From the NCBI RefSeq assembly GCF_003334785.1, contig NZ_QOWV01000003.1: a stretch of 64,000 bases of DNA. The stretch is one strand, 5' to 3'. Under the pieces are notes generated by a model. That model was not told where the DNA came from. It saw only the letters and a program-made list of their open reading frames with translations, and searched no databases. The stretch comes from Escherichia coli (GTDB lineage: Bacteria > Pseudomonadota > Gammaproteobacteria > Enterobacterales > Enterobacteriaceae). Shown one piece after another: positions 56,260-61,097 of this stretch (position 1 is its first letter; each line of letters opens with the position of its first letter). The translations under genes and the position numbers were made by a program.

Positions 56260-57252
<993 letters not shown>

Positions 57253-57257
57253 CAGAG

Positions 57258-57295
57258 CGGGAGAGCGTGATGCTCTCCCGAATGCTGTTTTTTTA
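57258..57295 (+). terminator. aphA intrinsic terminator
   Basis: Hairpin CGGGAGAGC-GTGAT-GCTCTCCCG followed by AATGCTGTTTTTTT. Confidence 0.8.
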
Positions 57296-57362
57296 ATCAC
57301 ACCTTTATCCTTTCGCTGTCTTGCTGCAAACTGATTAAGAGAGTTTTATCAAGGAGCAGCAC

Positions 57363-57779
57363 ATGTGGTATCAAAAGACGCTCACGCTTAGCGCCAAATC
57401 TCGTGGGTTTCATCTGGTAACGGATGAAATTCTGAATCAGCTGGCTGATATGCCGCGCGTTAACATCGGCTTACTGCATCTGTTGCTGCAACATACCTCC
57501 GCCTCTCTGACACTTAATGAGAACTGCGATCCCACCGTACGCCACGACATGGAGCGTTTTTTCCTCCGCACCGTTCCCGACAACGGAAATTATGAGCATG
57601 ACTATGAGGGAGCAGACGATATGCCTTCTCATATCAAATCCTCAATGCTGGGAACATCGCTTGTATTGCCGGTGCATAAAGGGCGTATTCAGACCGGCAC
57701 CTGGCAAGGCATTTGGCTGGGGGAACATCGCATCCACGGCGGATCGCGTCGCATCATCGCGACACTACAAGGGGAGTAA
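57363..57779 (+). CDS. yjbQ: UPF0047-family protein YjbQ (138 aa)
   Basis: Full [57 protein letters not shown]... recognised as YjbQ. Confidence 0.92.
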
Positions 57780-57782
57780 AAA

Positions 57783-58139
57783 ATGACCATTTCGGAGTTG
57801 CTACAATATTGCATGGCAAAACCAGGCGCAGAACAGAGCGTGCATAATGACTGGAAAGCGACGCAGATCAAAGTGGAAGATGTACTGTTTGCGATGGTGA
57901 AAGAAGTAGAAAATCGCCCAGCTGTTTCGCTGAAAACCAGCCCGGAGCTGGCGGAGCTGCTACGTCAGCAGCACAGCGATGTGCGTCCAAGCCGCCATCT
58001 GAATAAAGCGCACTGGAGCACCGTGTATCTCGACGGTTCGCTGCCAGATTCGCAAATCTATTATCTGGTGGATGCGTCTTATCAGCAGGCGGTGAATTTA
58101 CTGCCGGAAGAAAAACGTAAATTGCTGGTGCAACTCTGA
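57783..58139 (+). CDS. yjbR: uncharacterised protein YjbR (118 aa)
   Basis: Full ORF starting 3 bp after the yjbQ stop (likely co-transcribed); recognised as YjbR. Confidence 0.9.
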   Translation: MTISELLQYCMAKPGAEQSVHNDWKATQIKVEDVLFAMVKEVENRPAVSLKTSPELAELLRQQHSDVRPSRHLNKAHWSTVYLDGSLPDSQIYYLVDASYQQAVNLLPEEKRKLLVQL

Positions 58140-58146
58140 AAGGAAA

Positions 58147-58169
58147 AGGCCGCTCAGAAAGCGGCCTTA
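58147..58169. terminator. bidirectional terminator between convergent yjbR and uvrA
   Basis: Hairpin AAGGCCGCT-CAGAAA-GCGGCCTT; U-tract present on the uvrA (minus) side. Confidence 0.8.
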
Positions 58170-58173
58170 ACGA

Positions 58174-60996
58174 TTACAGCATCGGCTTAAGGAAGCGTGC
58201 CGTGTGTGATGCTTCGCACTCCGCGACGGTTTCTGGCGTACCGGAGACGAGGATCTCGCCGCCACCACTGCCGCCTTCTGGTCCCAGGTCGACAATCCAG
58301 TCAGCGGTTTTGATCACGTCGAGATTGTGCTCAATCACCACAATGGTGTTGCCCTGATCGCGCAGTTTATGCAGTACGTCGAGCAGTTGCTGAATATCGG
58401 CGAAGTGCAGACCGGTGGTCGGCTCGTCGAGAATATACAGCGTCTGCCCGGTGCCGCGTTTTGACAGTTCACGCGCCAGCTTCACGCGCTGGGCTTCACC
58501 GCCTGAAAGGGTGGTTGCGGACTGCCCCAGTCGAATGTACGTCAGGCCAACGTCCATCAACGTTTGCAGCTTACGCGCCAGTGCAGGTACGGCATCAAAG
58601 AACTCACGCGCCTCTTCGATGGTCATATCCAGCACTTCGTGGATGGTTTTGCCTTTGTACTTAATCTCCAGCGTTTCACGGTTATAGCGTTTACCTTTGC
58701 ACTGGTCGCACGGCACGTAGATATCCGGCAGGAAGTGCATCTCCACTTTGATCACGCCATCGCCCTGACAGGCCTCGCAGCGTCCGCCACGAACGTTAAA
58801 GCTGAAACGTCCCGGCGTATAGCCGCGCGCACGGGATTCCGGTACGCCCGCAAACAGTTCGCGCACAGGCGTAAACACGCCGGTATAGGTCGCCGGGTTA
58901 GAACGTGGAGTACGACCAATTGGGCTTTGGTCGATATCGATCACTTTATCGAAATGCTCCAGCCCCTGAATATCGCGATACGGTGCTGGTTCGGCGATGG
59001 TCGCCCCATTCAACTGGCGTTGGGCAATCGGGAACAGTGTGTCGTTAATCAGCGTCGATTTACCGGAACCTGAAACCCCGGTGATGCAGGTAAACAGACC
59101 CACCGGCAGCGTCAGCGTCACGTCCTTCAGGTTGTTGCCGCGTGCGCCTGTCAGCTTCAGCACTTTTTCCGGATTCGCCGGAACGCGTTTCTTCGGCACT
59201 TCAATCTTGCGTTTGCCGCTCATGTACTGCCCGGTCAACGACTCCGGCACCGCCATAATCGCTTCCAGCGGACCTTCTGCGACCACTTCACCGCCGTGAA
59301 CACCTGCGCCCGGGCCAATGTCGATCACATGGTCAGCGGCGCGAATTGCGTCTTCGTCGTGCTCCACCACAATCACGGTATTACCGAGATCGCGCAGATG
59401 GATAAGCGTACCCAACAGGCGCTCGTTATCACGCTGGTGCAGGCCGATAGACGGCTCGTCCAGCACGTACATAACGCCAACCAGGCCCGCACCAATCTGG
59501 CTCGCCAGACGGATACGCTGTGCTTCACCGCCAGAAAGCGTTTCTGCCGAGCGGGAAAGCGTCAGGTAATTCAGGCCGACGTTAACGAGGAATTTCAGAC
59601 GATCGCCGATCTCTTTAAGGATTTTTTCTGCAATCTTCGCCCGCTGACCTGCGAGTTTGAGATTGTTGAAGAATTCCATCGCATGACCAATGCTCATGTC
59701 GGAGATAGCAGGCAGCGGCGTATTCTCGACATACACGTGGCGCGCTTCCCGACGCAGACGCGTCCCTTCGCAGCTGGCGCACGGACGATTACTGATAAAC
59801 TTGGCTAATTCTTCGCGTACCGCGCTGGATTCCGTCTCTTTATAGCGGCGCTCCATATTATGCAGCACGCCTTCGAACGGATGACGACGAATGGAGGTAT
59901 CGCCACGATCGTTCATGTATTTGAATTCAATGTTTTCTTTGCCAGAACCGTACAACACCACTTTATGCACGTTCGCGCTCAGGCTGCCCCACGGCGCTTC
60001 GACGTCGAACTTATAGTGATCTGCCAGCGATTTCAGCATCTGGAAATAATAGAAGTTGCGGCGATCCCAGCCACGGATCGCACCACCAGCCAGCGACAGT
60101 TCCGGATTCTGGATCACTCGATCAGGATCGAAATATTGCTGTACGCCAAGGCCGTCGCAGGTCGGGCAGGCCCCCGCCGGGTTGTTAAACGAAAACAGTC
60201 GCGGCTCCAGTTCACGCATACTGTAGCCGCAAATTGGGCAGGCGAAGTTGGCGGAGAACAGCAGCTCTTCCGCTTTCGGGTCGTCCATATCCGCCACTAC
60301 CGCGGTACCACCGGAAAGCTCCAGCGCGGTTTCAAATGACTCGGCAAGACGTTGGGTAAGATCGTCACGCACCTTGAAGCGATCAACCACCACTTCAATG
60401 GTATGTTTCTTTTGCAGTTCCAGTTTTGGCGGATCGGAAAGATCGCAGACTTCGCCATCAATACGAGCACGGATGTAGCCCTGGCTTGCCAGGTTCTCCA
60501 GCGTTTTGGTGTGTTCGCCTTTGCGCTCTTTAATGATTGGCGCGAGTAGCATCAGACGCTTGCCTTCCGGCTGCGACAGCACGTTATCCACCATCTGGCT
60601 GACGGTTTGCGCCGCCAGCGGGACGTCGTGGTCCGGACAGCGCGGCTCGCCAACGCGGGCGAATAACAAACGCAAATAGTCGTGGATTTCGGTGATTGTC
60701 CCCACCGTAGAACGCGGGTTATGAGACGTCGATTTCTGCTCAATTGAGATGGCAGGAGAAAGCCCCTCAATATGATCGACGTCCGGCTTTTCCATCAGTG
60801 ACAGAAACTGCCGCGCGTAGGCGGAAAGGGATTCAACGTAACGGCGCTGCCCTTCGGCATATAAGGTGTCGAAAGCGAGCGAGGATTTGCCAGAACCCGA
60901 AAGCCCGGTCACGACAATGAGCTTGTCGCGGGGGATAACGAGGTTGATGTTTTTGAGATTATGGGTGCGGGCGCCCCGAACTTCGATCTTATCCAT
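58174..60996 (-). CDS. uvrA: excinuclease ABC subunit A, UvrA (940 aa)
   Basis: Full [56 protein letters not shown]... with two ABC ATPase modules and zinc-finger cysteines. Confidence 0.98.
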
Positions 60997-61081: not shown

Positions 61082-61097
61082 CTGAATGAATATACAG
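61082..61097 (-). promoter_or_regulatory. LexA (SOS) box in the divergent uvrA-ssb promoter region
   Basis: Plus strand CTGAATGAATATACAG = minus-strand CTGTATATTCATTCAG, fitting CTGT-N8-ACAG. Confidence 0.9.

Follow-up and report, generated by a model that had tools for sequence, protein, structure and literature searches.

The yjbQ-yjbR gene pair of Escherichia coli: a known, translationally coupled operon whose place beside uvrA probably reflects inherited gene order in Enterobacterales

Do two small conserved genes that abut uvrA in Escherichia coli take part in DNA repair, or do they stand there by inheritance? The question is raised by yjbQ and yjbR, which occupy positions 57,363 to 58,139 of a 64,000-nucleotide stretch of contig NZ_QOWV01000003.1 (assembly GCF_003334785.1), hereafter the window. 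The original prediction, made from the letters alone, had hinted at a link with the repair genes around the pair while cautioning that position by itself does not show function. The caution was right. The hinted link is not borne out, as no LexA box precedes the pair, the linkage to uvrA is limited to one bacterial order, and YjbR homologues elsewhere are found in unrelated contexts. We consider it very probable that the locus corresponds to the yjbQR operon already known from E. coli K-12, coupled and independent of LexA, and that its adjacency to uvrA is an ancestral Enterobacterales gene order with no link to repair or the SOS response. The adjacency to uvrA and ssb would thus reflect inherited order and not a function in nucleotide excision repair or SOS.

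The two genes and their convergent neighbour are arranged as follows.

57363..57779, plus strand: yjbQ coding sequence, an ATG open reading frame (ORF) of 138 amino acids, UPF0047/YjbQ family, with its TAA stop at 57777-57779
57783..58139, plus strand: yjbR coding sequence, an ATG ORF of 118 amino acids, MmcQ/YjbR family (PF04237)
58174..60996, minus strand: uvrA, 940 amino acids, the convergent neighbour outside the operon (ORF table and annotation)

Reading of the sequence places a gap of 3 bp (aaa, 57780-57782) between yjbQ and yjbR, and the convergent spacer between yjbR and uvrA measures 34 bp. The identity of the pair, the 3-bp spacing and the convergence with uvrA, all proposed earlier, agree with the ORF table, the sequence and the profile matches. 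Both are real genes, far beyond chance: the 951-bp stretch 57250-58200 has a megablast match in every one of the 5426 complete E. coli genomes, with at least 95% identity in all but one, and the annotated gene order under the match is aphA, yjbQ, yjbR and uvrA. Neither gene is new, as both are already catalogued, have solved structures, are present in every complete E. coli genome and carry RefSeq names ('secondary thiamine-phosphate synthase enzyme YjbQ' and 'MmcQ/YjbR family DNA-binding protein'). Their families had been called widespread and uncharacterised. The first word stands, with at least 7,992 YjbQ clusters at 90% identity and 1,353 YjbR family representatives at 50% identity, the latter being the yield (E ≤0.001) of an exhaustive search through 1.84 billion representatives; the second goes too far, given the structures and a published ThiE-like side activity.

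The regulatory evidence bears most directly on SOS membership. The whole window was scanned for the LexA box (CTGTN8ACAG, at most one mismatch), and the scan gave 21 matches in total against a chance expectation of 18 ± 4. The known operators of the lexA promoter (44195 and 44216) and of uvrA/ssb (61082) were recovered as positive controls, but the 110-bp spacer that precedes yjbQ (57253-57362) contains no LexA box at this threshold. The operator nearest to the pair is the following.

61082..61097, no strand assigned: LexA box in the divergent uvrA/ssb promoter region (pattern scan)

This operator lies 3.7 kb from the start of yjbQ and on the far side of uvrA; moreover, the uvrA promoter cannot be shared because yjbQR is convergent with uvrA. 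SOS control of yjbQR was hence rejected, the scan having found nothing near yjbQ. To our knowledge, yjbQ and yjbR are absent from the published LexA-regulon lists. In the annotated MG1655 region uvrA and ssb are the immediate neighbours, whereas lexA-dinF, which had also been described as nearby, is about 13 kb upstream, with ten genes (yjbJ, zur, dusA, pspG, qorA, dnaB, alr, tyrB, yjbS and aphA) in between. The searched literature mentioning yjbQ or yjbR gave no DNA-damage phenotype and no damage induction of either gene.

The comparative evidence comes from neighbourhoods anchored on yjbQ. The query alignment combined E. coli YjbQ with three relatives from enterobacteria and with four homologue fragments taken from crystal structures. 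Word-indexed homologue searches gave only close Enterobacteriaceae relatives, and a scan of one genome per species yielded the 80 yjbQ loci with the best matches, which come from 42 genera and show 53-97% identity. Full 10-kb flanks on both sides are present in 50 of the 80 loci (42 of the 69 outside Enterobacterales), and neighbours were counted by tblastn with the E. coli neighbours as queries. A gene for UvrA is found within 10 kb of yjbQ in 10 of the 11 Enterobacterales loci. Among the 69 others only 2 have one, the chance expectation being about 0.3. In neither of these two is it adjacent, being 7 kb away in a Methylococcaceae metagenome-assembled genome and 5 kb away in Shewanella surugensis. 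Linkage to repair genes is therefore conserved, in essence, within Enterobacterales only. Within the order the components come apart. For instance, Acerihabitans (L010) keeps yjbQ-yjbR with no uvrA nearby, while in Rosenbergiella yjbQ and uvrA remain and yjbR is lacking. Brenneria roseae (L063:6231-10417) likewise lacks yjbR and has the arrangement ssb (minus), uvrA (plus), yjbQ (plus), with uvrA and yjbQ co-directional and 188 nt apart; this locus is a local rearrangement or a gene replacement. The YjbQ of Brenneria roseae is only 55% identical to that of E. coli, below the Pseudomonas orthologues.

These counts may be read differently, namely as a sign that yjbQR (or only yjbR) serves DNA-damage repair as an accessory and stands beside uvrA and ssb for co-regulation or co-function; a damage- or crosslink-binding protein would be one form. 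MmcQ, the founding member of the YjbR family, comes from the mitomycin C biosynthesis cluster. The frequency of uvrA in Enterobacterales, including the co-directional uvrA-yjbQ of Brenneria, the slight excess over chance in the non-enteric loci and the predicted DNA binding of YjbR (Singarapu 2007, as cited in PMC7641849) would all suit such an accessory. We nevertheless regard it as extremely unlikely, since the pair has neither a LexA box of its own nor a promoter in common with uvrA, the linkage is lost outside Enterobacterales for both genes, Acerihabitans has the pair without uvrA, and the damage phenotype is missing from the yjbQ and yjbR literature that was searched.

The other recurrent neighbours of yjbQ also speak for inherited order. 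Two all-against-all clusterings of the neighbours within 4 kb recovered synteny only at the level of lineages and gave no partner gene that stays beside yjbQ across phyla. The genes alr, dnaB, tyrB and zur recur near yjbQ in Vibrionales, Alteromonadales, Aeromonas and Enterobacterales (clustering and NCBIfam). In Vibrio, Pseudoalteromonas and Photobacterium (L016, L020-L022, L027, L031, L034 and L064), zur is upstream of yjbQ and alr-dnaB is convergent downstream, and the same three genes flank E. coli yjbQ at greater distance. As the recurring zur, dnaB, alr and tyrB are unrelated housekeeping genes, their company points to an inherited gene order, and this is what inheritance, and not a repair accessory, predicts. 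The patterns indicate an old gamma-proteobacterial synteny block, to which tyrB, aphA and yjbR would have been added in the enterics.

A different arrangement seems to be specific for pseudomonads. In 24 loci from three genera (Pseudomonas, Stutzerimonas and Atopomonas; e.g. L013, L014, L017, L018 and L059), amtB is upstream and sutA downstream of yjbQ, as confirmed by NCBIfam. This order agrees with a bicistronic yjbQ-sutA transcript that has been described in P. aeruginosa (bioRxiv 10.64898/2026.06.26.734693). The transcript resembles yjbQR in that a yjbQ orthologue (58-64% identity) comes first and a small protein of the nucleic-acid machinery is encoded downstream, but it differs in that the upstream neighbour is amtB instead of aphA and uvrA is not nearby.

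The YjbR family gives a second view of the same question. Among the homologues, identity to E. coli YjbR starts near 53%, soon falls to 40-44% and finally reaches about 30%, so that the group of E. coli-type orthologues is narrow. The contexts of seven representatives were inspected, six of them outside the yjbQ-yjbR pair.

P0247 (L082), 53% identity: yjbQ-yjbR pair, with uvrA 4.5 kb off behind four inserted genes
P0258, 40% identity: purM-purN-yjbR-vgrG-Rhs (purMN and type VI secretion system genes)
P0259, 42% identity: qor-dnaB-alr-transporter-yjbR-bactofilin
P0268, 41% identity: contig of 937 bp, too short for context
P0273, 42% identity: YcaO/glycosyltransferase cluster
P0283 (L091:3023-5360), 37% identity: prophage-like block with HNH and SNF2 helicase genes, yjbR being directly downstream of a helix-turn-helix repressor and an M78 (ImmA/IrrE-type) peptidase
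P0294, 37% identity: between a MatE transporter and a GGDEF protein

The DNA around the six representatives outside the enteric pair, one of them on the contig of 937 bp, contains no YjbQ gene and no repair gene. None of the seven contexts has genes for iron, heme or iron-sulphur (Fe-S) functions.

Is the pair then a unit, and of what kind? The internal boundary is marked by one further element.

57769..57776, plus strand: Shine-Dalgarno sequence of yjbR, AAGGGGAG, within the last codons of yjbQ (junction alignment)

The two genes lie on the same strand a few nucleotides apart, with this internal Shine-Dalgarno sequence and no plus-strand terminator between them (terminator scan), which is the make-up of a bicistronic coupled operon. 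In the junction alignment, yjbR starts 2-3 nt past the yjbQ stop or the stop and start overlap as TAATG. Eight of the 9 Enterobacterales loci share the conserved junction CAAGGGGA(A/G)TAA (CAAGGGGAxTAA), from which Mangrovibacter (L005) diverges. This arrangement shows predicted translational coupling of yjbR to yjbQ, and we infer that yjbQR is a two-gene operon read as one transcript, from which two small cytoplasmic proteins would be made. A MazF-regulon table lists a cleavage site of yjbR 16 nt upstream of its AUG (PMC5001579). This site corresponds to the ACA at 57767-57769, within the 3' end of yjbQ, and cleavage there would consequently part yjbR from yjbQ on the bicistronic mRNA.

The pairing appears to be specific for Enterobacterales, at least in the 80-locus sample. 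yjbR is directly downstream of yjbQ in 9 of the 11 Enterobacterales loci (L002-L010, from Escherichia, Enterobacter, Leclercia, Mangrovibacter, Superficieibacter, an Enterobacteriaceae metagenome-assembled genome, Pantoea and Acerihabitans), against none of the 69 others, which represent 32 genera. Neither tblastn nor a hidden Markov model built from 95 YjbR-family sequences detected a YjbR-family gene within 10 kb of yjbQ in those 69 loci, and the model revealed no further YjbR-like ORF in any of the 80. These distributions bear on the idea that YjbQ and YjbR are a functional pair in Enterobacterales, either as a complex or as two steps, with YjbR delivering or sensing a ligand for YjbQ. Such a pair is compatible with the LexA-independent operon favoured here, to which it adds a further claim, and it gains something from the coupling junction kept across 8 genera, from its persistence in Acerihabitans and in L082, where uvrA is not nearby or is set off by four genes, and from the regulation of both genes by GadE/GadX (PMC4918353). 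We nonetheless hold it to be unlikely. The two families keep apart, both around yjbQ outside the order and around the six unpaired YjbR genes (one on the 937-bp contig); Rosenbergiella and Brenneria have yjbQ without yjbR; the downstream partner in pseudomonads is sutA; the spacers in L007 and L082 measure 87-110 nt; and no interaction data were found.

The boundaries of the favoured operon are formed by the following elements.

57258..57280, plus strand: intrinsic terminator of aphA, a hairpin followed by a U-run, taken as the 5' boundary of yjbQR (terminator scan)
57305..57332, plus strand: candidate weak yjbQR promoter, with a -35-like TTTATC at 57305-57310, a 16-nt spacer and a -10-like CAAACT at 57327-57332 (suggested by conservation)
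57351..57356, plus strand: Shine-Dalgarno sequence AAGGAG of yjbQ, 6 nt before the ATG (sequence reading)
58146..58168, both strands: single G+C-rich hairpin in the 34-bp yjbR/uvrA spacer (RNA fold on both strands; terminator scan on the minus strand only)

The RNA of 57250-57300 folds at -23.3 kcal/mol (z -5.1), and because the aphA terminator upstream is strong, yjbQR requires a promoter of its own. Transcription would begin past this terminator, at a putative weak promoter that departs from the sigma-70 consensus. A consensus sigma-70 scan of 57150-58350 gave no site at threshold, while an alignment of 8 Enterobacteriaceae reveals TTTaCCTTTT...cTTGCTGCA(C/A)ACT as the sole strongly conserved block of the aphA-yjbQ spacer; the same alignment shows conservation of GGA and of the ATGTGG start of yjbQ. 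According to published work, yjbQ and yjbR are under GadE/GadX regulation, knockouts show that glutamate-dependent acid resistance does not need either gene (PMC4918353), and yjbR rises 2.2-fold in O157:H7 on entry into stationary phase (PMC2241611). This regulation fits a stress or stationary-phase unit better than an SOS unit.

At the other end, yjbR and uvrA had been proposed to share a bidirectional terminator. They do share a hairpin, which folds on the plus strand at -18.4 kcal/mol (z -3.1) and on the minus strand at -22.4 kcal/mol (z -3.5), but its bidirectional character is canonical only by half. In the uvrA direction (minus strand) the stem runs into the U-tract UUUUCCUUUC and is called by the terminator scan, whereas in the yjbR direction (plus strand) the tail is UUAACGAUU, there is no U-run and the scan makes no call. 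The hairpin is, by its predicted structure, a canonical intrinsic terminator in the uvrA direction, and yjbQR transcription would probably end at or near it, as would that of the convergent uvrA. The terminator scan found 4 sites against 1.2 ± 1.1 expected. Two further terminator-like hairpins occur on the antisense strand, at 57377-57395 in yjbQ and at 57917-57934 in yjbR. As two of the four sites are the real aphA and uvrA terminators, these remaining two are most likely due to chance.

Some points tell against the reading of yjbQR as a LexA-independent operon held beside uvrA by inheritance. The neighbourhood sample is confined to the 80 best yjbQ loci, about a quarter of them from Pseudomonas, and to six YjbR contexts outside the pair. 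The promoter is placed by conservation alone, and termination is assigned, partly by deduction, to a hairpin that lacks a U-run in the yjbR direction. The absence of a repair role is argued from missing regulatory and comparative signals and not from a phenotype. Moreover, tight coupling is kept even where uvrA is missing, which this reading leaves unexplained and which hints that YjbQ and YjbR may cooperate in Enterobacterales. A combined possibility is a coupled YjbQ-YjbR module, in which for example YjbR acts as an adaptor, binding nucleic acid or a ligand, that targets YjbQ to a damaged substrate, and in which damage control independent of LexA lies behind the retention near uvrA and ssb; we regard this as very unlikely. 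The repair inference from the uvrA adjacency thus fails, both by the operators present and by comparison across genomes; this is useful as a clarifying negative result and of little weight as a discovery. A real function for YjbQ or YjbR would be modestly valuable, and nothing in the locus points to one.

What the proteins themselves may do is better judged from their families. YjbQ matches Pfam UPF0047 (PF01894; E 2.6e-36) and TIGR00149 (180.3 bits against a cutoff of 67.75, residues 4-138). It shows the family-specific fold, UPF0047 being a fold of its own, of which E. coli YjbQ is the reference member, with no difference from the family. Nine crystallised homologues are available (1VMH/1XBF, 1VE0, 1VMF, 2CU5, 2P6C, 1VMJ, 2P6H and 1VPH). 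In an alignment of 36 sequences from bacteria and archaea, including four crystallised homologues, the residues G36, H44, T45, E53, D62, H90, G97, G107, G112, W114, Q115 and E121 are invariant, and YjbQ has both the HT[ST][AC]x[LI][TI][LIV][NQ]E motif and the C-terminal GxWQ...E motif. The invariant set of His, Thr, Glu, Asp, His, Trp-Gln and Glu seems to resemble the active site of a small-molecule, possibly metal-dependent, enzyme.

The published biochemistry is consistent with such a site. YjbQ and other family members have a weak thiamin-phosphate synthase (ThiE-like) activity (Morett 2008, as cited in PMC3010111 and PMC11551756), strong enough that the design of a tight thiE auxotroph required deletion of yjbQ (PMC11551756). 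In multicopy, yjbQ suppresses pdxB by an unidentified route to 2-oxo-3-hydroxy-4-phosphobutanoate, and the authors of that study do not view the ThiE activity as the physiological function of YjbQ (PMC3010111). Together the ThiE-like activity and the pdxB suppression suggest a pocket for phosphorylated metabolites. The literature search on both families returned no functional study beyond those cited here.

Pfam places YjbR in PF04237 (E 2.9e-21), and the full 118-residue protein aligns with PDB entry 2fki 'Protein yjbR', a nuclear magnetic resonance structure (E 2.5e-75). By profile and by family fold it is thus a member of MmcQ/YjbR (PF04237, formerly DUF419; structures 2FKI, 2A1V and 2KFP/3H9X), and it would be a small alpha+beta ligand-binding protein for which DNA binding is predicted. 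The 'DNA-binding' part of its name derives from similarity to the MotA 'double-wing' (Singarapu 2007, as cited in PMC7641849; also PMC3424535). The C-terminal 'double-wing' domain of T4 MotA does share with YjbR an alpha+beta fold with a central sheet, but it scores just 4.8 against YjbR, next to 4.7 for McrB-N, and the label stands on weak fold similarity. Beyond the family, the best structural neighbours are VP1028 (8.2), the Listeria YdhG-like 'frataxin' (8.1), Nqo15 (6.3), CyaY (5.2-5.5) and bilin reductases (5-6).

These structural scores lead to an alternative in which YjbR, instead of binding DNA, would be a small-ligand chaperone like YdhG or frataxin, with a metal ion or a tetrapyrrole as its ligand. 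We find this doubtful. YjbR shows no sequence similarity (8% identity) to the YdhG-like and frataxin-like proteins (B. subtilis YdhG/Fra, Listeria 9T2W, CyaY and Nqo15). The protein is slightly acidic (isoelectric point 6.06). Its nearly invariant residues, K51, R61, K75, H77, W78 and Y100, are mostly basic or aromatic and suit an anionic ligand such as a nucleic acid better than the acidic iron-binding ridge of frataxins. According to PMC7641849, neither the functional residues nor the electrostatics of frataxin are conserved in the family, and nucleases, helicases and EVE domains occur as fusion partners of MmcQ/YjbR domains, a fact in favour of nucleic-acid binding. The missing iron, heme and Fe-S genes in the seven contexts also speak against such a chaperone. 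Predicted nucleic-acid binding by YjbR is hence, on balance, the more likely reading.

A second model with the same product name, NCBIfam NF007603 (PRK10250, 122 positions), gives YjbR only 43.8 bits against a cutoff of 183 and must describe a different, paralogous enterobacterial protein, possibly E. coli YbdF. Such a paralogue could hide the phenotypes of yjbR deletions.

A few other assignments were tried. Membership in a defence system, which the fusions of MmcQ/YjbR with EVE (PMC7641849) brought to mind, was rejected, with no PADLOC match for YjbQ or YjbR, and no structured RNA was recognised by Rfam at E ≤1 within the locus or beside it. An association with phages was likewise rejected, because most of the phage-collection records that were matched are chromosomal contigs or very short pieces catalogued as phage. 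The 'phage' records with yjbQ-yjbR (AFYI01000007.1, AGRM01000005.1, OR851359.1 and OR845277.1) are 500-kb Salmonella chromosomal contigs or unannotated fragments of 2-5 kb; the presence of the pair in them is a database artefact and no evidence of phage carriage. PHROGs gave one family of unknown function for YjbQ, and a few distant YjbR-like genes are found in Blautia and Faecalimonas phages of the collection.

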